A stretch of DNA of 8,652 nt from a virus (Duplodnaviria; Heunggongvirae; Uroviricota; Caudoviricetes): positions 1 to 8,652 of the IMG/VR virus record IMGVR_UViG_648276657_000002; one strand, given 5' to 3'. The translations under genes were made by a program, and so were the position numbers. Positions 1 to 8,596 of the stretch are shown here, piece by piece (the stretch's first letter is position 1; each line of letters begins with the position of its first letter). The notes under the pieces were generated by a model. It worked only from the letters and a program-made list of their open reading frames with translations, made no database searches and had not been told where the DNA came from.

Positions 1-30
1 AAAAAAAAAAAAACCCCCGGGGGGGGGGGG
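1..30. repeat. Homopolymer block A13-C5-G12 at the window edge; likely an assembly, tailing or engineered-junction artifact rather than native phage sequence
   Basis: Direct reading: 13 A, 5 C and 12 G in succession. On the minus strand this reads C12-G5-T13 directly after the stop of the 56..286 gene. Confidence 0.5.
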
Positions 31-55
31 TTCTACAGAGGGTTGTAGCTGGATA

Positions 56-286
56 TCATGAGTAGAAGAAGTATGCCAGTTCTGCTTTTGAGCGCAGCCA
101 TTGTCTTGTTTTACAGGCTTTAAAAAGCCCATTCATCAATACTTTACCTGGCATTTTGCGCTTACCTGTTAAGTGAGTCTGGATATAGTGACTCGTCGTT
201 CCGGCTTCCTGTGCGAAGGCTTCACGCTCATCCGGAGTAAGTGCAAGCCAGTGCTTTTTGAAATCGAAATGTCCGTTATCGCTCAT
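56..286 (-). CDS. Cro-like small HTH DNA-binding regulator (Cro/CI-type HTH), transcribed divergently from the repressor candidate
   Basis: 76-aa ORF. The segment AQEAGTTSHYIQTHLTGKRKMP resembles the Cro/YdaS-type helix-turn-helix (compare lambda Cro QSAINKAIHAGRK). It sits opposite the operator cluster and the repressor candidate, as cro does in lambda. No homology search was run. Confidence 0.5.
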   Translation of the reverse strand: MSDNGHFDFKKHWLALTPDEREAFAQEAGTTSHYIQTHLTGKRKMPGKVLMNGLFKACKTRQWLRSKAELAYFFYS

Positions 287-311
287 AGCTATTGCCTGAT
301 ATTTATTTCAG

Positions 312-340
312 ATAATAAATATTCACCCATAAGGTAACAA
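312..340 (-). promoter_or_regulatory. Candidate sigma70 promoter for the Cro-like gene (pR analogue): -35 TTGTTA (reverse complement of 335..340), 17-bp spacer, -10 TATTAT (reverse complement of 312..317)
   Basis: Hexamers read on the minus strand with 17-bp spacing; an operator-like palindrome at 323..337 lies between the -35 and -10. Confidence 0.4.
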
Positions 341-385
341 AAATCAAGGATAGTTACCCATGAGGTGCATTTACCTGTTGGGTAA
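323..385. promoter_or_regulatory. Operator cluster (OR analogue): three 15-bp palindromes of type TTACC-N5-GGTAA at 323..337 (TCACCcataaGGTAA), 354..368 (TTACCcatgaGGTGC) and 371..385 (TTACCtgttgGGTAA)
   Basis: Inverted-repeat half-sites with a fixed 5-bp spacer, found between the divergent Cro-like and repressor genes; the same motif recurs at 1083..1097 and 1145..1159. Confidence 0.55.
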
Positions 386-398
386 TATTGCTTTAAAT

Positions 399-417
399 TG
401 AATCATCTTCTGATTCA
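399..417. promoter_or_regulatory. Perfect 7-5-7 palindrome TGAATCA-tcttc-TGATTCA just upstream of the repressor start; candidate binding site for a second regulator or an RNA hairpin
   Basis: Exact inverted repeat read directly; its half-site sequence differs from the TTACC/GGTAA operators. Confidence 0.35.
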
Positions 418-440
418 GATATGAGGCGATTTTCCAGAAA

Positions 441-1025
441 ATGAAAAGTATCCAGGACGTCCGCAGGCAAAATCTCAACGACTTGATCGACCGTGAATTC
501 AATGGTGTTCAGACGCGGATGGCAGAAAAACTTGGAACTCAGGCAAATCTGGTAAACCGCTGGGCTCTTGGCAAAAAGGTTATCGGCGACCAGGTTGCGC
601 GAAAAATTGAAGCTGCCGCCAATAAACCCCGTAACTGGCTTGATATCGATCGCTCGCTTTCTCAGGAGGGGTTTCAGCCTGTCGGCCCAAGCGACATTGG
701 TCAGCTGGCGGCTCACAACCTGGAACGCTGGATGAGCGAAAGCCGCGACCTTTCAACTCAGGGAAAACTTCACCGCGCATCCGGCGTCGCCCAGGTGACA
801 ATCAGCCGCCTGTTAAACAATGAGGTCAGCGTTTCCATTTCCACCCTGGAGAATGTTGCATCCGCATTCGGGCGTCACGGCTATGAATTACTGATTCACC
901 CGCACGACCCTGCGACTATCAACTATGACCGCTCGCGCTACGCATTGTTACCCGAAACAGAGAAGGCAAAGATCGAAAGTTACATTGAATTTGTCATCAG
1001 CCAGAACGAAAAAAACAAACAATAA
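441..1025 (+). CDS. Prophage repressor candidate (CI analogue): tandem XRE-type HTH protein with no recognisable S24/LexA-like peptidase domain
   Basis: 194-aa ORF. N-terminal HTH region (QTRMAEKLGTQANLVNRWALGKK ... ARKIEAAANKPRNWLD) is typical of phage repressor HTH_XRE domains, and a second HTH-like segment follows (GVAQVTISRLLNNEVSVSISTLENVASAFG). It is flanked by operator palindromes and followed by an intrinsic terminator, matching the lambda cI position. I see no peptidase-type motif. Confidence 0.6.
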   Translation: MKSIQDVRRQNLNDLIDREFNGVQTRMAEKLGTQANLVNRWALGKKVIGDQVARKIEAAANKPRNWLDIDRSLSQEGFQPVGPSDIGQLAAHNLERWMSESRDLSTQGKLHRASGVAQVTISRLLNNEVSVSISTLENVASAFGRHGYELLIHPHDPATINYDRSRYALLPETEKAKIESYIEFVISQNEKNKQ

Positions 1026-1045
1026 AATCATATTTTTCAGTAAGT

Positions 1046-1071
1046 AAGCCGCCTTCTGGCGGCTTTTTTAT
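1046..1071 (+). terminator. Rho-independent terminator after the repressor gene: 8-bp stem AAGCCGCC/GGCGGCTT, loop TTCT, then a T-run
   Basis: Hairpin plus T6 tract read directly, about 20 nt past the 441..1025 stop codon. Confidence 0.75.
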
Positions 1072-1082
1072 TGCCTGTGCGA

Positions 1083-1159
1083 TTACCTAATGGGTAATTT
1101 TTTTAACTCATATCTATTGACATCAAACCAAATACGCATAATTATTACCTCAACGGTAA
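1083..1159 (+). promoter_or_regulatory. Early-operon promoter (pL analogue) with two operator palindromes (OL analogue): TTACCtaatgGGTAA at 1083..1097, -35 TTGACA at 1117..1122, weak -10 near 1140..1145, TTACCtcaacGGTAA at 1145..1159
   Basis: Perfect -35 consensus hexamer; the operator motif matches the OR sites exactly; one site overlaps the -10 region, consistent with repression of the early operon. Confidence 0.5.
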
Positions 1160-1178
1160 CAGACCGAGGTAACAAGTT

Positions 1179-1331
1179 ATGCAGTGGAAAATCATCAACG
1201 GTTGGTACTGCGTTACTGCATGCGGATTCATGAGCTGGAAGTTCCGCACCTTACAGGAAGGCATCAAGTGGGCTTTCGTCAGCAAAGAAGCTCGCGATGT
1301 GGCCAACGATAACGAGATATGGGAGGGCTGA
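1179..1331 (+). CDS. Small hypothetical protein (50 aa), first ORF of the early operon; not in the supplied ORF track (below its length cutoff)
   Basis: ATG at 1179 with a GAGGT Shine-Dalgarno about 8 nt upstream; translation MQWKIINGWYCVTACGFMSWKFRTLQEGIKWAFVSKEARDVANDNEIWEG; TGA stop at 1329..1331, 2 nt before the next start. No family recognised. Confidence 0.35.
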   Translation: MQWKIINGWYCVTACGFMSWKFRTLQEGIKWAFVSKEARDVANDNEIWEG

Positions 1332-1333
1332 TA

Positions 1334-1633
1334 ATGAACGTTAATCAGCAGAAAAATCTTCAAAAAATCATGCTGGCATTCGACAAGGACTACCGCCTGT
1401 CAGAACAGCTATATGACCGACAAGTTGAACTGATTGAGAGCATCCGACTTCATCAACTGTCCTCAACTTTCGACGTTGTAACAGGCAAAGGCGTTCGTCA
1501 GGAAGTGCTGGAAGCTGCTAAAGACAGCCCTGAGTTCGAAGAACTGATGGATGCCTACCGGCGCGAGGCAATGGCGATTATCGCCCGCTGGGATCTGGCG
1601 GATCAGCTTGATGGGCAGAGGGACGCGGCATGA
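1334..1633 (+). CDS. Hypothetical phage early protein (99 aa), translationally coupled to the downstream exonuclease
   Basis: The track ORF 1319..1633 is trimmed to the ATG at 1334, which has a GGGAGGG Shine-Dalgarno 7 nt upstream. Its stop TGA (1631..1633) overlaps the exonuclease ATG (1630). No family recognised. Confidence 0.55.
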   Translation: MNVNQQKNLQKIMLAFDKDYRLSEQLYDRQVELIESIRLHQLSSTFDVVTGKGVRQEVLEAAKDSPEFEELMDAYRREAMAIIARWDLADQLDGQRDAA

Positions 1634-2529
1634 TGCGGAACGCTGGAATCATGGATAGAACAAAATACATCGGAGGAAGCGATGTTGCAGGGATTCTTGG
1701 AATTAGCCCATGGCGCACCCCGCTTGAGGTTTATCTGGATAAGGTCCAGCCACGTGTCAAACCAGTAGACCCAAGCAAGCAGAAAGTTTTCACGCGTGGC
1801 CAGCGTATGGAGCCATACGTAATAGACCTGCTTTCTGAGGAAACAGGGATGGAAATCGTTCATCGCGGAAACCGCTATATCCACCGTGATTACGATTTTA
1901 TTGCAGCTGAGATCGATGCAGAAGCAGCGTCAGGCGAGAACATTGAGATCAAAACAGTTAGTCCGTTCAAAGCCAAAGAATGGGGAGAAATCCAGACAGA
2001 TGCAATTCCTGTGCATTACACGGCCCAGGCCATGCACGGGTTGATGGTTACAAACAAACAGGTATGCGTTTTCGGTGTGCTTATCGGTGGCGACGACTTC
2101 CGAATCTATCGGGTTGAGCGTGATGAAGAAACTATCCAGGCGATCTTAGAAAAAGAAATCGCTTTCTGGGACCGAGTGAAAAATCTTAACCCGCCGGAAG
2201 CTACCAGCGTAAGCGATGTATCGCTGATGTTTGAGAAAGATGCCGGGACAAGTATCGAGGTTGACGGAAAGGCACTCGCACTATTCAACGATCTACGAGA
2301 CATGAAGTCACGCAGAAAATCACTGGAAGAAGAAATAGCTATATCAGAAGAGAAGCTGAAGATGTACATGCAAGAGCACTCAGTCCTGACCCTGGACGGA
2401 AAGCCGCTCTGCACATGGAAATCTCAGATCAGCAACAGATTCGACCAGAAGCTATTCCAGTCAGTACACCCTGAGTTATTCGAAAAATTCAAAACAACAA
2501 CGACACAACGCGTCTTCAGAATGAAGTAA
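1630..2529 (+). CDS. YqaJ-type viral recombinase exonuclease (lambda Exo-like PD-(D/E)XK alkaline exonuclease), partner of RecT
   Basis: 299-aa ORF with the N-terminal YIGGSDVAGILGISPWRTPLEVY segment typical of YqaJ-family exonucleases; sits immediately upstream of recT. The start could instead be the ATG at 1633 or 1651. Confidence 0.8.
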   Translation: MMRNAGIMDRTKYIGGSDVAGILGISPWRTPLEVYLDKVQPRVKPVDPSKQKVFTRGQRMEPYVIDLLSEETGMEIVHRGNRYIHRDYDFIAAEIDAEAASGENIEIKTVSPFKAKEWGEIQTDAIPVHYTAQAMHGLMVTNKQVCVFGVLIGGDDFRIYRVERDEETIQAILEKEIAFWDRVKNLNPPEATSVSDVSLMFEKDAGTSIEVDGKALALFNDLRDMKSRRKSLEEEIAISEEKLKMYMQEHSVLTLDGKPLCTWKSQISNRFDQKLFQSVHPELFEKFKTTTTQRVFRMK

Positions 2530-2538
2530 GGAGAAAAA

Positions 2539-3561
2539 ATGTCTATCAATGCACTTAAGGCAGCGGCTACCGGTAACCAAGTTGCACATCATAATGAGAA
2601 ACCAACAACTCTGGCCGGACTTCTGGCAGACCCAAAAATAAAAGCCCAGATGGCTTTGGCACTTCCAAAGCACATGACAGCAGACCGTCTGGCGCGCATA
2701 GCAACCACAGAGATCCGAAAGGTTCCAAAACTTGCATCATGCGACCAAGCCAGCTTCCTGGGGGCAATTATGCAATGTGCCCAATTGGGTCTTGAACCAG
2801 GTGGAGCTCTTGGACACGCTTACCTGATACCGTTCGACAAACGCCAGAAAGTAAATGGAAGATGGGAAACCGTATCTACAGAAGCACAGCTGATTATCGG
2901 CTATCGCGGAATGATTGACCTTGCCCGCCGCTCTGGGCAGATCCTGAGTATCTCGGCTCGTACCGTACATACAAACGACAAATTCAGCTACTCATACGGC
3001 CTGGAAGAAACGCTCGAGCATTTACCTTGCGAAACAGGTGACCGCGGAGAATTAACGCACGTTTACGCCGTTGCACGACTGAAAGATGGCGGAGTCCAAT
3101 TTGAAGTTATGAGCCGGGCAGACGTTGAGAAAGTTCGTGCACTGAGCAAAGCCGGTAGCAGTGGCCCATGGGTTGATCACTTCGATGAGATGGCTAAAAA
3201 AACAGTAATTCGCCGACTGTTCAAATATCTTCCTGTTTCTATTGAGATGCAGAAGGCTGTTGTTATGGATGAGCGCGCTGAAGCTGGACTTAGCCAAGAT
3301 AACGCAGCTGTTATCACTGGTGAATATTCCGTAGTTGACGATGAGCGTCAACACCTATCGCCAATTTCAGATTCAGAACGAGAAGAAGCTCGAGAATATA
3401 TCATCGCGATACTTAATAGCCTGGATCCATCTGCTGAAGATGCAAAAACGATGTTCAAGCGCGCTGAAAATGAAATTAACACCATGGCTGAAAAGCTCGG
3501 TGATGAATATCACCAAAAATTCATGATGACGCTTAACGATATGCGTCCAGAATTCGAGTAA
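2539..3561 (+). CDS. recT: RecT-family single-strand annealing recombinase
   Basis: 340-aa ORF with long stretches matching E. coli Rac RecT as I recall it (LPKHMTADRLARIATTEIRKVP, LGLEPGGALGHAYLIPF, LIIGYRGMIDLARRSGQI, HVYAVARLKDGGVQFEVM, GPWVDHFDEMAKKTVIRRLFKYLPVSIEMQKAV). Strong AAGGAG RBS upstream. Confidence 0.92.
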   Translation: MSINALKAAATGNQVAHHNEKPTTLAGLLADPKIKAQMALALPKHMTADRLARIATTEIRKVPKLASCDQASFLGAIMQCAQLGLEPGGALGHAYLIPFDKRQKVNGRWETVSTEAQLIIGYRGMIDLARRSGQILSISARTVHTNDKFSYSYGLEETLEHLPCETGDRGELTHVYAVARLKDGGVQFEVMSRADVEKVRALSKAGSSGPWVDHFDEMAKKTVIRRLFKYLPVSIEMQKAVVMDERAEAGLSQDNAAVITGEYSVVDDERQHLSPISDSEREEAREYIIAILNSLDPSAEDAKTMFKRAENEINTMAEKLGDEYHQKFMMTLNDMRPEFE

Positions 3562-3569
3562 CCACCACC

Positions 3570-3588
3570 GCGGCGCCACGCGCGCCGC
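3570..3588 (+). other. GC-only hairpin (7-bp stem GCGGCGC/GCGCCGC, 5-nt loop) in the recT-alpA intergenic region, with no following T-tract
   Basis: Read directly; it lacks the U-run of a canonical intrinsic terminator. Confidence 0.4.
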
Positions 3589-3610
3589 ACTGCAACCAAG
3601 AGAGGTATTT

Positions 3611-3859
3611 ATGAAAGGTGCATTAGGTAAGAAGGAACTCCTGGCGGTGGTGCCACTGTCATGGAGCACTATCGACCGCATGGAGCGCACAGGGGAATTT
3701 CCTAAGCGCTGGTATATCACTGACAAACGCTGCGCATGGAACCGTGATGAAGTTGAGCGTTGGCTTGATGAACGTCAGGCAGCAAGCCCGGCAGAGTTCC
3801 AGGGTAAAAAGCCTCCTGTTCAGCAACGTGTATATCGTCCTGTGAGCAACGCTGCATGA
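3611..3859 (+). CDS. AlpA-family phage regulatory protein (excisionase-like winged HTH)
   Basis: 82-aa ORF; KKELLAVVPLSWSTIDRMERTGEFPKRWYITDKRCAWNRDEVERWLDER matches the AlpA/Xis-type pattern (compare LPEV..LTGLSRSTIYRL...G.FP.P..LG.R...W...EV..W); AGAGAGG RBS upstream. Confidence 0.7.
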   Translation: MKGALGKKELLAVVPLSWSTIDRMERTGEFPKRWYITDKRCAWNRDEVERWLDERQAASPAEFQGKKPPVQQRVYRPVSNAA

Positions 3860-4016
3860 GTGTGCTGCTAAGGCACTGGAGCAAATGGTCAGGATGGTAC
3901 TTATTCCTGGCCTCTGTTTCAGCATGGCTTTATCTGCTGGCATTAATTTTCAGAGAGGGTTGGATTAAGTGAGAAAGTTAAGCCGACTTGAAAAATATCA
4001 CATGAACAAGGTTTCA

Positions 4017-4268
4017 ATGCGCAGTCCGTCAAAGATTGTCGCCGTTACTCCTGCGGCGATAGAGATCGAAAAACGCGCGATTGAAAGAGAGAAAAAAGGG
4101 CAGTTCCGCATTGCCGCCCACCTTTGGCTTCAGTGTATGGATGTTGCTTCTGGTGATGTTGAGCGTGCAAGGATCGCGGTTCGCAGGGACCAATGTATCA
4201 CAAAAGGTAACGGCCTTCGCCGTGGCGACTATAGCGGTATAGGATGTTGCGGGGTAGTTTATGACTAA
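4017..4268 (+). CDS. PerC/ANR-like small transcriptional regulator candidate; the track ORF starts at GTG 3969, and the true start is uncertain (ATG 4002 or 4017)
   Basis: The segment EKKGQFRIAAHLWLQCMDVASGDVERARIAVRRDQC resembles the PerC/Pch pattern (G.WRRAA.RW.DV ... RR..C), recalled from memory and not searched. An AAGG motif lies 7 nt before ATG 4017. Confidence 0.45.
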   Translation: MRSPSKIVAVTPAAIEIEKRAIEREKKGQFRIAAHLWLQCMDVASGDVERARIAVRRDQCITKGNGLRRGDYSGIGCCGVVYD

Positions 4269-4911
4269 GAAATACACACTAATCTATGCAGATCCACCCT
4301 GGGTATACCGGGACAAAGCCGCAGATGGTAATCGCGGTGCCGGTTTTAAATATCCGGTTATGAGTGTGATGGATATCTGCCGCCTTCCTGTGTGGGATTT
4401 GGCCGATGAAAACTGTCTGTTGGCAATGTGGTGGGTGCCAACACAACCACTCGAAGCGCTAAAAGTTGTTGAAGCCTGGGGATTCCGTCTGATGACCATG
4501 AAGGGCTTCACGTGGATAAAATGTGGTAGTCGACAACCAGATAAACTGGTTATGGGTATGGGACACATGACTCGCGCCAATAGTGAAGATTGCCTGTTTG
4601 CAGTAAAGGGAAAACTACCTCCGCGCATTAATGCAGGGATCGTTCAGTCATTTACCGCACCGCGGCTTGAGCATTCAAGAAAACCAGATGTCGTTCGTGA
4701 AAAACTTGTGCAATTGTTAGGCGATGTTTCTCGCATTGAACTGTTCGCCCGCCAGTCGTCTCATGGCTTCGATGTTTGGGGTAATCAGTGCAAAGACCCG
4801 GCGGTGCAACTACACCCAGGATACGCGTTGGATATTGGCGGATTAACAAATGCATTCAGCAATTCTCCGCTTTCACCAACAGACAACCAAGGCCGGGAGC
4901 GTGCAGCATGA
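4261..4911 (+). CDS. MT-A70-family DNA N6-adenine methyltransferase (orphan phage methyltransferase)
   Basis: 216-aa ORF with the DPPW catalytic motif in context IYADPPWVY near the N-terminus. The start overlaps the upstream stop by 8 nt, and the stop TGA overlaps the next ATG. Confidence 0.8.
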
Positions 4912-5567
4912 ACCTATATCAACGCATCAATGGCGCTGACTGGTGCAATATCTTCGTCGTCGGCGATCTGCATGGGTGCTACACGCTGCTGATGAACGAA
5001 CTCGACAAAGTTTCATTCGACCCGGCGCGCGATTTGCTTATTTCCGTTGGTGACCTTGTTGACCGCGGCGCTGAAAACGTCGAATGCCTAGATTTGATTA
5101 CTATGCCGTGGTTCCGAGCTGTTCGTGGCAACCATGAGCAGATGATGCTGGATGCACTGGTCAACGGCGGAAATTTCGGACATTGGATGTCAAACGGCGG
5201 TGGATGGTGGCACCAACTTGATTCTGAGCAGGATGTGCAACTCAAATACCTTCTGCCAAAGATTACCAACCTCCCGATGATTATCGAACTGGTTACCGGC
5301 AATAAGAAGGTCGTCATCTGCCACGCAGACTACCCGCACAACGAATACGCATTCAATAAGCCAGTACCAGAAGAAATGGTGATATGGAATCGTGAGCGGG
5401 TTAGCGACGCGCAGGACGGTATTGTCTCGGAGATAACCGGTGCCGATTTGTTCATCTTCGGTCATACGCCAGCACATCACCCACTGGTGTATGCAAACCA
5501 GATGTACATCGACACAGGGGCAGTGTTCTGCGGAAATCTGACGCTTACCAAAGTCCAAGAAAGATAG
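4908..5567 (+). CDS. Lambda-type Ser/Thr protein phosphatase (calcineurin-like metallophosphatase, PrpA/PrpB / lambda ORF221 family)
   Basis: Metallophosphatase motifs GDLHG, GDLVDRG and GNHE, with an N-terminus ([12 protein letters not shown]) resembling E. coli PrpA. Start placed at the ATG at 4908 (ATGA overlap with the methyltransferase stop) rather than the track start at 4788. Confidence 0.85.
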
Positions 5568-5569
5568 AA

Positions 5570-6742
5570 TTATTTATTACTGTCTTCCATCCACTTCTCA
5601 AACTTCGACGGGGAGAACGGAATCAGATCCGTATGCTCCCCGTTAATCCAGGAATCAATCATATCGGCCCACTGCTGCAACATGTAGGCGCGCTGTCTGG
5701 CGTATTCCGCTTTGTTATATACGGCGCGCACACCTTTCTGCTCATGTGCCAGAGCCTTTTCAATCCAGTCTGAAGGATAACCAGCCTCATGCAACAACGT
5801 ACTGGCTGTACGGCGCATATCGTGTACGGTGAAGTCCTGAATATGCTCACCATCTTCATTTATTATTTTCACCGTTCTGTCGATCAGAGAGTTCAGCGCG
5901 GCATTAGATAATGGCTTCCGGAAGTTGTAACGACCAGGAACCAGATATTCACTTCCACCAGCGCACATCTGCAACCCGACCAATATATCCTGTGCCTGTT
6001 TAGGCAGGTAAATAACGTGCGCCCGGCTTCCCTTCATGCGGTCTGAAGGAATTGTCCATGTCCATTTTTTAAAATCTATTTCGTCCCACGTTGCATTGGT
6101 GAATTCGCCTTTACGAACCATAGTGATAAGCACCAGCTTTAAAGCCATTTTCATAGTACCCATAGCACCAATGGCATCCAGCGTGCGGAAGAACAGGCCA
6201 ATTTCTTCTGGTGTCAGTGTTCGCTCTCGTGGTTTAAATATGGCGATAGACGAAGGTTTAATGTCAGCCGCAGGATTAAATAAACCATGACCACGGTCAT
6301 TGGCGTGACGGTATACGCTGCTGATGATCTCCCTGGCCTGTACTGCTGTTGCACGGCCACCGCGTTCGACAATCCGGTCACACAAATCACGAACCATCGA
6401 TGTGGTAATTTCAGCCATCATTTTGTTGCCAAGAACCGGAAGTATGTCACGGTCGATCACCGCCTGTTTCATTGCGCGGGTACTGTCAGCCAGGATGACG
6501 TGTTTCATATAACTGTCGGTATGTACCGCAAACGTCTCGGCACCACGAATCTTTTTGATACCGTCACGTTTAGCCGCGGCCGGTGACTGGCCTGCTTTAA
6601 GCAGTTTCTTTGCAGCAATCAGTTCTTCCCGCGCTTCTGCCAGGCTGATACCGTCACGCCCATACTGCCCTATTACCAGTGTTTCGCGGCGACCGTTGAT
6701 ACGGTAGTCATAGCGAAACGAGACCGTGCCTGACGTAAGCAC
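5570..6742 (-). CDS. P4-like tyrosine integrase; the reading frame continues upstream to 6805 and is interrupted by an in-frame TAA (6806..6808) inside the conserved N-terminal motif, so it may be a pseudogene or an N-terminally truncated product
   Basis: 390-aa ORF from GTG. Arm-binding region (GLYVAVLTSGTVSFRYDYRINGRRETLVIGQYGRDGISLAEARE) and catalytic region (HDMRRTASTLL ... VYNKAEY) match tyrosine recombinases. Upstream in frame: GTG-L-T-D-T-K-stop-K-T-L-K-P-Q-D-K-L-Y-K-V-S-D-R-D-G-L-Y, the canonical LTDT..K..KP.DK.Y start of P4-like integrases. Confidence 0.85.
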   Translation of the reverse strand: MLTSGTVSFRYDYRINGRRETLVIGQYGRDGISLAEAREELIAAKKLLKAGQSPAAAKRDGIKKIRGAETFAVHTDSYMKHVILADSTRAMKQAVIDRDILPVLGNKMMAEITTSMVRDLCDRIVERGGRATAVQAREIISSVYRHANDRGHGLFNPAADIKPSSIAIFKPRERTLTPEEIGLFFRTLDAIGAMGTMKMALKLVLITMVRKGEFTNATWDEIDFKKWTWTIPSDRMKGSRAHVIYLPKQAQDILVGLQMCAGGSEYLVPGRYNFRKPLSNAALNSLIDRTVKIINEDGEHIQDFTVHDMRRTASTLLHEAGYPSDWIEKALAHEQKGVRAVYNKAEYARQRAYMLQQWADMIDSWINGEHTDLIPFSPSKFEKWMEDSNK

Positions 6743-6853
6743 AGCTACATACAGCCCGTCACGATCGGAGACCTTGTACAGTTTGTCCTGCGGCTTGAGG
6801 GTTTTTTATTTTGTATCGGTAAGCACAATTCACCCGTATAGAAACCATTTTCA

Positions 6854-6891
6854 TGACGGTATGAGAGTATACCTTTAAGGTAATACCGTCA
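6854..6891. promoter_or_regulatory. 9-bp perfect inverted repeat (TGACGGTAT ... ATACCGTCA, 20-bp spacer) enclosing operator-like half-sites (ATACCtttaaGGTAA at 6869..6883); candidate int regulatory or att-associated site between the integrase and guaA
   Basis: Read directly; lies in the int-guaA intergenic region where the prophage-chromosome junction is expected. Confidence 0.35.
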
Positions 6892-6940
6892 CCTGTACCG
6901 CCGAAAAATATGGTGTAGAGTGAATAGAAATGAATACATA

Positions 6941-6970
6941 AAAACAAAAACCCTCTGTAAAAACAGAGGG
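6941..6970 (-). terminator. Rho-independent terminator of guaA (stem CCCTCTG/CAGAGGG, then a T-rich run on the minus strand)
   Basis: Minus-strand read: CCCTCTG-TTTTTA-CAGAGGG followed by TTTTTGTTTT, about 50 nt downstream of the guaA stop. Confidence 0.75.
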
Positions 6971-7018
6971 TTAAATTAGTATCTGAATAGGAATGAGTTG
7001 CTATGAGTTAGCTGTTAA

Positions 7019-8596
7019 TCATTCCCACTCAATAGTCGCTGGCGGCTTGCCGCTGATGTCATACACCACGCGGGAAATACCGTTCACTTCATTGATAATA
7101 CGGTTGGAAACGCGGCCGAGGAAGTCGTACGGCAGATGTGCCCAGTGTGCGGTCATAAAGTCGATGGTTTCGACAGCACGCAGAGAGACAACCCAGTCAT
7201 ACTTACGACCATCGCCCATTACGCCAACGGAACGTACTGGCAGGAAGACGGTGAACGCCTGGCTGACTTTGTCGTACAGGTCCGCTTTACGCAGTTCTTC
7301 AATGAAGATGGCGTCAGCACGGCGCAGCAGGTCACAATACTCTTTCTTCACTTCTCCCAGAACACGAACGCCAAGGCCTGGTCCCGGGAACGGGTGACGG
7401 TACAACATGTCATACGGTAGGCCCAGCTCCAGACCAATCTTACGCACTTCGTCTTTGAACAGCTCTTTCAGCGGTTCAACCAGGCCCATCTTCATCTCTT
7501 TCGGCAGGCCACCCACGTTGTGGTGAGATTTGATGACGTGTGCTTTACCGGTTGCAGAAGCAGCAGATTCGATAACGTCAGGGTAGATGGTGCCCTGCGC
7601 CAGCCACTTCACGTCTTCCAGTTTCAGCGCTTCTTCATCGAATACTTCAACGAAAACGCGACCGATAATTTTACGTTTTGCTTCCGGATCGTTTTCGCCA
7701 GCCAGCGCTGACAAGAAGCGATCTTCTGCCGGTACGTGAACAATGTTCAGACCAAAGTGATCGCCAAACATATCCAGAACCTGCTCTGCTTCGTTGAGAC
7801 GCAGCAGGCCGTTGTCGACGAATACGCAAGTCAGGTTTTTACCGATAGCGCGGTGCAACAGCATTGCGGTAACGGAGGAATCCACGCCACCAGAGAGGCC
7901 GAGGATGACTTTATCGTCGCCCACTTGCTCGCGGATGCGGGCTACAGCGTCGTCGATAATTTTCGCTGGCGTCCACAGGGCTTCACACTGGCAGATATCA
8001 CGCACAAAACGCTCCAGCATGCGCATACCCTGGCGGGTGTGAGTCACTTCCGGGTGGAACTGTACGCCATAGAAGCGTTTTTCTTCGTTGGCCATGATGG
8101 CAAACGGGCAGCTTTCGGTGCTGGCTACGGTGACGAAGTCGGACGGGATAGCGGTAACTTTATCGCCGTGGCTCATCCAGACGTCCAGCAGCGGTTTACC
8201 ATCTGCGGTCAGCGCATCTTCGATACCGCGAACCAGTGCGCTGTCGTTTACGACTTCAACCTGCGCGTAGCCAAATTCACGTTCGTTAGAGGCTTCAACG
8301 TGACCGCCCAACTGCATTGCCATGGTCTGCATGCCATAGCAAACGCCGAATACCGGTACGCCTGCTTCAAAGACATACTGCGGCGCACGCGGGCTGTTTT
8401 CTTCGGTGGTGCTTTCCGGGCCGCCGGAAAGAATAATGCCGCTTGGATTGAAGTCACGAATTTGTGCTTCTGTCACATCCCACGCCCACAGTTCGCAGTA
8501 AACACCCAGCTCACGCACGCGGCGCGCAACTAGTTGAGTGTACTGAGAACCGAAGTCCAGAATGAGGATGCGATGCTTATGAATGTTTTCCGTCAT
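7019..8596 (-). CDS. guaA: GMP synthase (glutamine-hydrolysing), full length
   Basis: 525-aa ORF beginning [40 protein letters not shown] and ending ATIEWE, recognised as enterobacterial GuaA; includes the class I glutamine amidotransferase domain and the SGGVDSS ATP-pyrophosphatase motif. Confidence 0.97.

Follow-up and report, generated by a model that had tools for sequence, protein, structure and literature searches.

The examined 8,652-nucleotide stretch of DNA (the window) carries TTACC-N5-GGTAA palindromes which are, as judged from sequence, the repressor-binding sites of a phiV10/epsilon15-type prophage. We interpret the window as a phiV10-like immunity region at guaA, with a non-cleavable repressor of the SPC32H type (Rep), dispersed operators and induction driven by an antirepressor (Ant), and we put the probability of this reading at roughly 80%. 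The immunity system is already described. Nor is the operator sequence, which the first-pass annotation had set apart from that of lambda, a new one: seven sites of 16–17 bp are marked as repressor-binding in the GenBank record of epsilon15.

Prophage setting and layout of the immunity region

The window corresponds to the right arm of a prophage of the phiV10-like type (Uetakevirus) that has integrated at the guaA 3′ end, and its genome context is that of a Uetakevirus at this site. Nucleotide matches of the window were to phiV10, ZX5 and phages of the epsilon15 family, with positions 8..1400 being 97.6–97.7% identical to phiV10 and ZX5. The prophage was present in 561 of 5426 complete E. coli genomes (~10%), and related loci (L001 and L013) also showed prophage gene content. 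The sequence of the attachment core (Table 1) was taken from PMC9782041. Rfam and tRNA scans over the window returned no matches. As for gene content, the window differs from phiV10, which has a RecET fusion and DUF1382, in having a separate YqaJ exonuclease, RecT and a Ser/Thr phosphatase.

Table 1. Features of the window, with operators compared to TTACC-N5-GGTAA
Feature	Position	Strand	Operator match	Remarks
Intrinsic terminator after cro-like gene	10..34	-		Terminator scan; G/C homopolymer stem, then T-run
cro-like gene, small HTH regulator	56..286	-		Homologue of epsilon15 gp39 / phiV10 p41; heads the leftward early operon
Leftward early promoter region	312..347	-		Two overlapping candidates
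OR-a, TCACCCATAAGGTAA	323..337		1 mismatch	Inside core of leftward promoter
OR-b, TTACCCATGAGGTGC	354..368		2 mismatches	Weak site, 2 bp from OR-c
OR-c, TTACCTGTTGGGTAA	371..385		exact	Of the OR sites, closest to repressor gene
Repressor gene rep (194 aa)	441..1025	+		Homologue of SPC32H Rep (PDB 5D50)
rep transcript intrinsic terminator	1038..1073	+		Core stem 1046..1065; also annotated in phiV10
OL-up, TTACCTAATGGGTAA	1083..1097		exact	Centre ~62 bp upstream of expected start site
Early promoter pL	1117..1145	+		TTGACA, 17-bp spacer, AATTAT; 10/12 matches
OL-down, TTACCTCAACGGTAA	1145..1159		exact	Covers last -10 base and expected transcription start
First pL-operon gene	1179..1331	+		Homologue of epsilon15 gp37; ORF with match to phrog_898
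Integrase gene int, P4-family tyrosine integrase	5570..6826	-		Stop at codon 7 (6808..6806) interrupts the frame
Sixth operator, TTACCTTAAAGGTAT (int-strand reading)	6869..6883		1 mismatch	Upstream of int
attR core, ATTGAGTGGGAATGATT	7017..7033	-		Abuts guaA, at guaA 3′ end

The cro-like regulator gene is divergent from the repressor gene, with three palindromes between them. Downstream of the repressor gene lies a terminator, followed by a consensus-like early promoter that is placed between two palindromes and drives recombination genes. This arrangement (cro / OR / cI / terminator / OL-pL) was kept in every relative examined, and it is the part of the lambda-like OR/OL logic proposed in the first-pass annotation that stood, whereas the implied lambda mechanism and novelty did not. 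As in lambda CI/Cro with OR1-3 and OL1-3, the repressor and cro promoters diverge with three operators between them, transcription of the repressor gene is terminated ahead of a second operator-controlled early promoter for recombination genes, and the operators are palindromic with conserved half-sites. The region differs from lambda in its operators of 15–17 bp, in their 17-bp and 62-bp spacings and in their genome-wide dispersal in the Uetakevirus family, as well as in a repressor which lacks S24 and which, by analogy with SPC32H, would act as a tetramer with domain pairs in trans and respond to an antirepressor.

The terminator after the repressor gene proved to be real, with an 8-bp stem (6 GC pairs) plus a T-run and a fold of -21.1 kcal/mol (z = -5.3). 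The phiV10 record also annotates a terminator at the position equivalent to that after the cro-like gene. The perfect -35 hexamer TTGACA noticed earlier at the early promoter was found at 1117..1122, and it is followed by a 17-bp spacer and by AATTAT at 1140..1145; CTATTGAC at pL was invariant in 7 phages. The two operators described as flanking this hexamer do flank it, but they enclose the whole promoter, one ending 20 bp ahead of the -35 and the other abutting the -10. In the leftward promoter region, the promoter scan gave TTGTTA (340..335)-17-TATTAT (317..312), with 9/12 matches, while TTGATT (347..342)-17-GAATAT (324..319) was read by eye from the alignment, the AAAAATCAA block being invariant there. 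No sigma-70 promoter for rep passed the promoter scan of the window. Two hand-picked candidates (TTACCT-17-TAAATT and TTGAAT-16-TATGAG) were both weak and neither was adopted.

The product of the cro-like gene matched phrog_35 ('transcriptional repressor', E 5.6e-13) and is 76% identical to epsilon15 gp39, with the invariant motif EAGTTSHYIQ.HLT. Pfam gave no match at a meaningful score for this product and a PDB sequence search gave none. Its AlphaFold model (pLDDT 81.6) has five helices, and Foldseek placed it nearest to the N-terminal domain of YdaS and the DNA-binding domain of the 434 repressor, both of the expected fold class but with non-significant E-values. Judged by the phrog_35 match and the modelled fold, the designation Cro-like is plausible but unproven.

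Operator palindromes and their conservation

Five palindromes were found by pattern search at the places given in the first-pass annotation: three exact, one with 1 mismatch and one with 2 mismatches. The reported 'five copies' are therefore three perfect and two degenerate sites. The 2-bp gap between OR-b and OR-c was also as described. The window holds 3 exact copies against 0.01 expected, a count reached in 0/200 dinucleotide shuffles; when up to 2 mismatches are allowed, it holds 8 copies where 2.4 are expected (0/200 shuffles), and second-order Markov simulations produced 0 exact copies. Whole genomes of the family hold 8–10 exact sites each against 0.03–0.05 expected, or 13–18 sites with up to 1 mismatch, which we grouped into nine loci common to the genomes. 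Operators are thus not confined to two control regions, given these nine loci and the sixth site in the window.

The sixth operator, which is absent from the first-pass annotation, overlaps a -10-like TATACT (6871..6866) and lies 43–57 bp upstream of the int start codon. An equivalent int-upstream site, which has the identical mismatch (GGTAT) but differs in its centre, is found in phiV10, SPC32H, epsilon15, Tyrion and the Klebsiella phage.

A search for the palindrome in related phages, as proposed earlier, found matching sites in epsilon15, SPC32H, Tyrion, BUCT554 and Klebsiella BUCT711, with half-sites and spacings conserved. Half-sites and positions were common to 6 relatives, among them phages with no more than 42–47% identity in Rep, and the OR-a half-sites were conserved in 7 phages. 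The centre-to-centre distance from OR-b to OR-c was 17 bp in all six relatives compared, with the other OR spacing being 30–31 bp. The centres of OL-up and OL-down are 62 bp apart in the window and the relatives compared, and 63 bp apart in the Klebsiella phage. The resulting cassette (operator, 19–20 bp, CTATTGAC as the -35, 17 bp, -10 and operator, with centres 62 bp apart) is found at two places, pL and downstream of the replication genes, in 5/5 whole genomes examined.

A population set of 81 near-identical loci, each with a 100% identical Rep N-terminal domain, was obtained by profile search of viral contigs, which gave no more divergent loci. Variation was found in 2/50 half-site columns, 13/25 central columns and 50/235 other intergenic columns (Fisher p = 3.5e-4). 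The OR-a half-sites showed no polymorphism in the 81 loci, and those of OL-up were invariant in 56 haplotypes, in which 4/5 central bases vary. The G+C content of the central 5 bp was 0.36 in the phiV10 clade and 0.10 in the clade of SPC32H.

Two further candidates were rejected. A third OL site (GGTAAC-N5-GAGGTAAC, 1155..1173) consists of two copies in direct rather than palindromic orientation, the second of which is the Shine-Dalgarno sequence for the first gene under pL, and this counts against an operator; a true third OL site is present in epsilon15 and SPC32H on an extra ~75 bp missing from the window. In a possible LexA box (CTGATATTTATTTCAG, 296..311), neither arm agrees with CTGT/ACAG, and the epsilon15 clade lacks this sequence.

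Repressor, antirepressor and competing readings

The phmmer search against PDB matched Rep to 5D50_A, the SPC32H Rep, over its full length (E 4.1e-42, query 1–190 to chain 2–197). Rep has an N-terminal HTH DNA-binding domain (~residues 1–70) and, in the middle, a domain for dimerisation to which Pfam assigns HTH_3. Its C-terminal region aligns with the dimerisation/tetramerisation domains of SPC32H Rep, the last domain being that of tetramerisation / Ant-binding; the domain names follow PMC9986798. The Pfam scan of Rep returned HTH families only (HTH_3, HTH_26 and weaker ones), with no Peptidase_S24. The presumed recognition helix, NLVNRW, was invariant among the relatives compared. Rep is 99.5% identical to the repressors of phiV10 (DQ126339) and vB_EcoP_ZX5 (MW722083). 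Over-expression of the ZX5 repressor lowered endolysin and holin transcripts by >99.9%, and ZX5 Ant, likewise tested by over-expression, promotes the lytic cycle (PMC9782041). The operators of phiV10 and ZX5 are neither annotated in their records nor mapped in PMC9782041.

The closest described system is that of SPC32H, whose Rep-Ant switch was reportedly worked out by Kim & Ryu in 2013 (J Virol) and Kim et al. in 2016 (PNAS), with structures 5D50 and 5D4Z. The two Reps are homologous over the full length, with 42.7% identity overall and 53.5% in the DNA-binding domain, and the operator half-sites, their spacings, the gene order and the 3 + 2/3 site layout are alike. A small Ant homologue with a LexA box is also present in close relatives of the window: it is 85 aa long in phiV10 and in APEC O1 (the closest complete prophage, 98.3% identical), is encoded beyond the window, and has a canonical LexA box (CTGTATAAATA[C/T]ACAG) 21–22 bp upstream. 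The differences are three OL sites in SPC32H compared to two in the window, only 36% identity in the C-terminal Ant-binding part, and Salmonella rather than E. coli as host. Epsilon15 (GenBank AY150271.2; Kropinski et al. 2007) shares the identical palindrome and the guaA attachment site. The seven 'repressor' protein_bind features of its record are at terS, gp3 and gp19/tailspike, at OL (three) and downstream of the replication genes. Missing from that record are the sites of OR (three), the int-upstream site and the second member of the post-replication pair, and all of them are conserved according to the present analysis.

A strict lambda-type switch, with CI-like dimers binding cooperatively at OR and OL only, RecA-stimulated self-cleavage, and Cro competing at the three OR sites, is mimicked by the arrangement of genes and sites, and this mechanism was implied by the first-pass annotation. 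The cI of Pseudomonas phage PseuP_224 (OP795451) would also favour it, as this distant relative has a homologous N-terminal domain (39% identity, E 1e-12) and TTACC/GGTAA half-sites, three upstream and two downstream of its gene, together with a C-terminal Peptidase_S24, and is thus of the true lambda type. PseuP_224 differs, however, in its 4-bp central spacer (TTACC-N4-GGTAA, against 5 bp here) and in a Cro-like protein of the YdaS family that is unrelated to the one in the window. We consider the strict lambda switch very improbable, since the repressor of the window lacks S24 and is homologous throughout to the Rep of SPC32H, which is non-cleavable and tetrameric, whole genomes of the family have their operators scattered among nine loci, and ant is under LexA control in close relatives.

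Another factor could be the main ligand of the palindromes, such as the cro-like protein, the PerC-like or AlpA-like regulators of the pL operon, or a host protein. The cro-like protein is indeed more conserved than Rep between the window and epsilon15 (76% vs 43%), which would fit a conserved site. Yet the sites lie on promoters of essentially all lytic units, including that of the cro-like gene itself, as a prophage repressor needs. Moreover, the half-site appears to track the repressor domain rather than the cro-like protein, because PseuP_224 (a single case) combines these half-sites and a Rep-type N-terminal domain with an unrelated Cro. The epsilon15 annotators also assigned the sites to the repressor, and Rep is said to bind palindromic sites in the secondary account PMC9638917. 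Binding mainly by another factor is thus unlikely, if somewhat less so than the strict lambda switch; lambda-like sharing of the sites by Rep and the cro-like protein is compatible with a Rep-controlled immunity region. Functionless repeats arising by chance or composition are the least credible explanation, with a negligible probability: the degeneracy of two among the five copies and the AT-richness of the intergenic DNA speak for it, but no shuffle reached the observed count, position and spacing are conserved across phages with diverged flanks, and the half-sites show a footprint at the population level.

Proposed switch and its meaning for the family

In the Rep/Ant switch that we favour, Rep would read (A)TTACC-N5-GGTAA(T). 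According to PMC9638917, SPC32H Rep is a tetramer whose palindromic sites are bound by domain pairs from different dimers, and Ant breaks this tetramer. If Rep of the window does likewise, N-terminal HTH pairs from different dimers would occupy one palindrome per pair, and one tetramer would therefore have two DNA-reading heads; which head reads which site, and what part the cro-like protein plays, we can only infer. At pL, the operators centred near -62 and +1 enclose the -35 and -10, so that Rep, once bound there, would turn off the operon for early recombination. OR-a, within the leftward promoter, would serve to silence the cro-like/replication operon. OR-b and OR-c abut the rep promoter region and presumably allow rep autoregulation, a role that is a guess because no convincing sigma-70 promoter for rep was found. 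The sixth operator would act on the -10 of the int promoter, and Rep operators beyond the window would guard the remaining transcription units.

Direct silencing of many transcription units by one repressor through many scattered operators is known from P1 C1 and mycobacteriophage L5 gp71. P1 also has an antirepressor; the P1 and L5 operators are asymmetric and their repressors are unrelated to Rep.

Induction would proceed without RecA-stimulated self-cleavage. DNA damage would take LexA off the promoter of ant, a small antirepressor gene elsewhere in the prophage, and Ant would bind the C-terminal domain of Rep, upon which the tetramer would leave the DNA. The order LexA, Ant, repressor is that given in PMC7380047.

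It is possible, with the odds against it, that a single two-headed tetramer clamps the cassette promoter on one helix face, and that specificity resides in the central 5 bp and in the matching of Ant to the Rep C-terminus. For one tetramer to reach across operators with a 62-bp spacing, the DNA would have to bend sharply, and two tetramers are equally possible. The half-sites are common to Uetakeviruses of E. coli, Salmonella, Klebsiella and Enterobacter; the cassette and the genus-wide half-site appear not to be described in the literature examined.

The value of these results is mainly one of annotation, as records call the repressor a 'helix-turn-helix domain-containing protein' and leave the operators unmarked. 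No new biological question is opened, and the 62-bp cassette and the shared half-site are the only points that might repay experiments. The defined operator set could be used in reporters, or to engineer detection phages based on phiV10. For the biology of these prophages, the Rep/Ant switch predicts SOS induction via LexA and Ant, rather than via repressor cleavage, and possible cross-talk with other Ant-encoding prophages. If specificity does lie outside the half-sites, there would be broad cross-immunity between genera together with private induction signals.

Operators and promoters in the window

A pattern search for TTACC-N5-GGTAA found the five palindromes where the first-pass annotation had placed them, three exact and two degenerate. 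OR-a, OR-b and OR-c lie between the cro-like gene (56..286, minus strand) and the repressor gene rep (441..1025, plus strand), and OL-up and OL-down lie at the early promoter pL. Three exact copies were observed against 0.01 expected; none of 200 dinucleotide shuffles reached three, and second-order Markov simulations gave none. The 2 bp gap between OR-b and OR-c was correct, and the clean intrinsic terminator described after rep was recovered, as was the perfect -35 TTGACA of pL (1117..1122), with AATTAT (1140..1145) after a spacer of 17 bp. OL-up ends 20 bp upstream of this -35, and OL-down begins at the final base of the -10 and spans the expected start site; the two sites said to flank the -35 are indeed both at pL, but they bracket the whole promoter. 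No convincing rep promoter was identified in the window. A further operator lies upstream of int, at which the mismatch generates a -10-like TATACT (TATAAT in epsilon15); this mismatch, with a variable centre, is common to all five whole genomes scanned (phiV10, SPC32H, epsilon15, Tyrion and BUCT711).

Operators, the rep terminator and the second promoter cassette
Feature	Position	Basis or remark
OR-a, operator, 1 mismatch (TCACC for TTACC)	323..337	pattern search
OR-b, operator, 2 mismatches (GGTGC for GGTAA)	354..368	pattern search
OR-c, operator, exact	371..385	pattern search
OL-up, operator, exact	1083..1097	pattern search
OL-down, operator, exact	1145..1159	pattern search
rep terminator, strong hairpin and T-run	stem 1046..1065	-21.1 kcal/mol, z = -5.3
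int operator, 1 mismatch	6869..6883	reads TTACCTTAAAGGTAT on int strand
Second two-operator cassette, after replication genes, phiV10	35070..35146	
Second two-operator cassette, after replication genes, APEC O1 prophage	34090..34166	

Another palindrome, CTGATATTTATTTCAG (296..311), separates the leftward -10 from the start codon of the cro-like gene. It is kept in phiV10, Tyrion and BUCT554 and absent from the epsilon15/SPC32H/Klebsiella clade; it resembles a LexA box (CTG-N10-CAG), yet both arms deviate.

The 56..286 product matches phrog_35, "transcriptional repressor" (E 5.6e-13), and is 76% identical to epsilon15 gp39. Its model is a five-helix bundle (pLDDT 81.6), with the YdaS N-terminal domain and the 434 repressor DNA-binding domain as best fold matches, at non-significant E-values. 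The "Cro-like" label is a reasonable, provisional one.

Rep as the probable reader of the palindromes

Four independent lines support the palindromes as operators of Rep, the 441..1025 product. The proposed motif search in related prophages returned the same half-sites at the same positions in 6/6 relatives (phiV10, Tyrion, BUCT554, Klebsiella BUCT711, epsilon15 and SPC32H), with Rep identities to the window protein down to 42-47%. Their OR has three sites between divergent genes, with centre spacings of 30-31 and 17 bp, and at their pL a centre-to-centre distance of 62 bp separates two sites (63 bp in the Klebsiella phage). In the alignments the half-site columns are invariant while the central five bases differ, and NLVNRW, the presumed recognition helix, is invariant among the Reps compared. 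Within a population of the window and 80 IMG/VR contigs with an identical Rep N-terminal domain, polymorphic columns numbered 2/50 in half-sites, 13/25 in centres and 50/235 elsewhere in the intergenic regions (Fisher p = 3.5e-4). The epsilon15 GenBank record annotates seven 16-17-bp copies of the palindrome as repressor-binding.

As a side observation, operator-centre columns were 52% variable, against 21% elsewhere in the intergenic regions, with the neighbouring half-sites fixed. The 8 bp upstream of OL-up (1075..1082) are hypervariable among 56 OL haplotypes of near-identical prophages.

The Pfam scan found no Peptidase_S24 domain in the 194-aa Rep, the full length of which aligns to SPC32H Rep (PDB 5D50, E 4e-42). 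According to secondary accounts, the latter has N-terminal DNA-binding, middle dimerisation and C-terminal tetramerisation/Ant-binding domains (PMC9986798), sits on DNA as a tetramer whose palindrome-reading domain pairs are drawn from different dimers, and is released by the tetrameric antirepressor Ant (PMC9638917), synthesized after LexA cleavage (PMC7380047). The gene ant is beyond the window; an 85-aa Ant homologue is present in phiV10 and the APEC O1 prophage, with a canonical LexA box (CTGTATAAATACACAG or CTGTATAAATATACAG) 21-22 bp upstream. The repressor of phage ZX5 is 99.5% identical to the window Rep; its over-expression eliminated free phage and lowered endolysin and holin transcripts by >99.9%, while Ant over-expression promoted the lytic cycle (PMC9782041).

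The sole strong HTH_3 match in Rep (residues 106-147) falls, by alignment, inside the C-terminal fragment that was crystallised, SPC32H Rep(92-198); by the domain order in PMC9986798 we take it as the middle dimerisation domain. The N-terminal DNA-binding domain gave a weak YdaS-family match only. Since the HTH_3 match is outside that domain, the "two HTH motifs" of the phiV10 record may differ in role.

The remaining line is a natural experiment. The repressor of Pseudomonas phage PseuP_224 has a homologous N-terminal domain (39% identity, E 1e-12) which, unlike in the window Rep, is joined to a true S24 domain. Three sites upstream and two downstream of its gene read TTACC-N4-GGTAA, with the same half-sites but a centre one base shorter. 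An unannotated 76-aa YdaS/Cro-family ORF (~1660..1890 of the PseuP_224 locus, minus strand) is divergent from its cI, and this Cro-like protein is unrelated to that of the window. As a Rep-type domain and the same half-sites thus occur with an unrelated Cro, the half-site appears to travel with the repressor domain.

The source prophage

Phages phiV10 and vB_EcoP_ZX5 share 97.6-97.7% identity with window 8..1400, and the region is present in 561/5426 complete E. coli genomes, where it forms the right arm of a podovirus prophage of ~40 kb adjoining guaA. This prophage encodes an epsilon15-type capsid staple, a Bbp16-like cement protein and a T7 gp14-like core protein, and the attachment core ATTGAGTGGGAATGATT (7017..7033), the published one (PMC9782041), is directly against guaA. 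The closest complete genome is APEC O1 (98.3% identity across window 22..7000). Two mosaic segments of the window, 1634..3557 and 4914..5586, match neither phiV10 nor the EcPF40 prophage. YqaJ exonuclease and RecT are separate in the window, like in epsilon15 and APEC O1, whereas in phiV10 they are replaced by a RecET fusion; in place of the phiV10 DUF1382, the window encodes a lambda-type Ser/Thr phosphatase.

At 6806..6826 (minus strand) the int reading frame is interrupted at codon 7 by TAA, and reads VLTDTK*KTL against VLTDTKLKNL in the EcPF40 prophage. The difference resembles a -1/+1 pair within homopolymer runs of A and C, so that a sequencing error is possible; should the stop be genuine, prophage excision may be lost. 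The unusual homopolymer run A13 C5 G12 (1..34) serves, on the minus strand, as the cro-like gene's terminator with its G/C stem, so the run, annotated in phiV10, is native, not an assembly artefact.

A genome-wide operator set and its proposed working

The five whole genomes and the APEC O1 prophage each carry 6-10 exact palindromes and 13-18 with up to one mismatch (0.03-0.05 and ~1.1-1.2 expected in phiV10/SPC32H simulations). Sorted by neighbouring genes, they fall into nine recurring loci, most but not all found in every genome. One is at the start of terS, one precedes the head operon, one separates ant from the tailspike gene and another the O-antigen modification genes from those for lysis; a fifth is upstream of int, OL and OR are two more, and the last two are past the cro-like gene's terminator just left of the window and, as a pair, after the replication genes. 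In a related prophage locus (L001 19964..19978), ~15 bp past the window's left end, the 1-mismatch operator TTACCTTTGAGGTAC lies past the cro-like terminator and upstream of a gp40-like gene, and is kept in phiV10, Tyrion and the Klebsiella phage.

The pL and post-replication units share one design (operator, 19-20 bp, CTATTGA(C/T/A), 17 bp, -10, operator), with operator centres 62 bp apart in both. In the latter, the downstream operator's right half, GAGGTAAATCATG, is also the next gene's Shine-Dalgarno sequence. Terminators stand behind the cro-like gene, behind rep and behind the replication genes; with the shared cassettes, these make the genome look like a string of short operons, every one under a Rep-guarded promoter of its own. 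No lambda-style antitermination cascade was noticed in passing.

The proposed lambda-like switch stands in part: the layout works like lambda's, but the lambda repressor has an S24 cleavage domain, which Rep lacks, and lambda operators are confined to OR and OL, while those of the window type are dispersed beyond both. The element shows those traits of the Uetakevirus Rep/Ant system that can be checked within the window, and the LexA-preceded ant homologue is seen in relatives. Both the system and the phage type are known; the operator was already annotated in epsilon15, and the repressor was tested as the 99.5% identical protein. Three small additions are absent from the records consulted: the three OR sites together with the int operator, the 62-bp promoter cassette with two operators that occurs repeatedly, and a central 5 bp that differs between clades (G+C 0.36 vs 0.10) with shared half-sites.

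In the lysogen, Rep tetramers would occupy the palindromes, with a pairing of heads to sites that we infer. The sites, their overlap with promoters, the homologies and the LexA boxes of relatives come from the present analysis; the tetramer, the action of Ant and repression by the ZX5 protein come from published work. Two Rep sites enclose the -35 and -10 of pL, OR-a falls within the core of the leftward promoter, and the int operator overlies the int promoter -10. OR-b (weak) and OR-c (strong), by the rep promoter region, probably serve rep autoregulation, the sign of which, like any role of the cro-like protein at the operators, we infer. Upon DNA damage, LexA would be inactivated and Ant made, which would strip Rep off the DNA so that all units fire.
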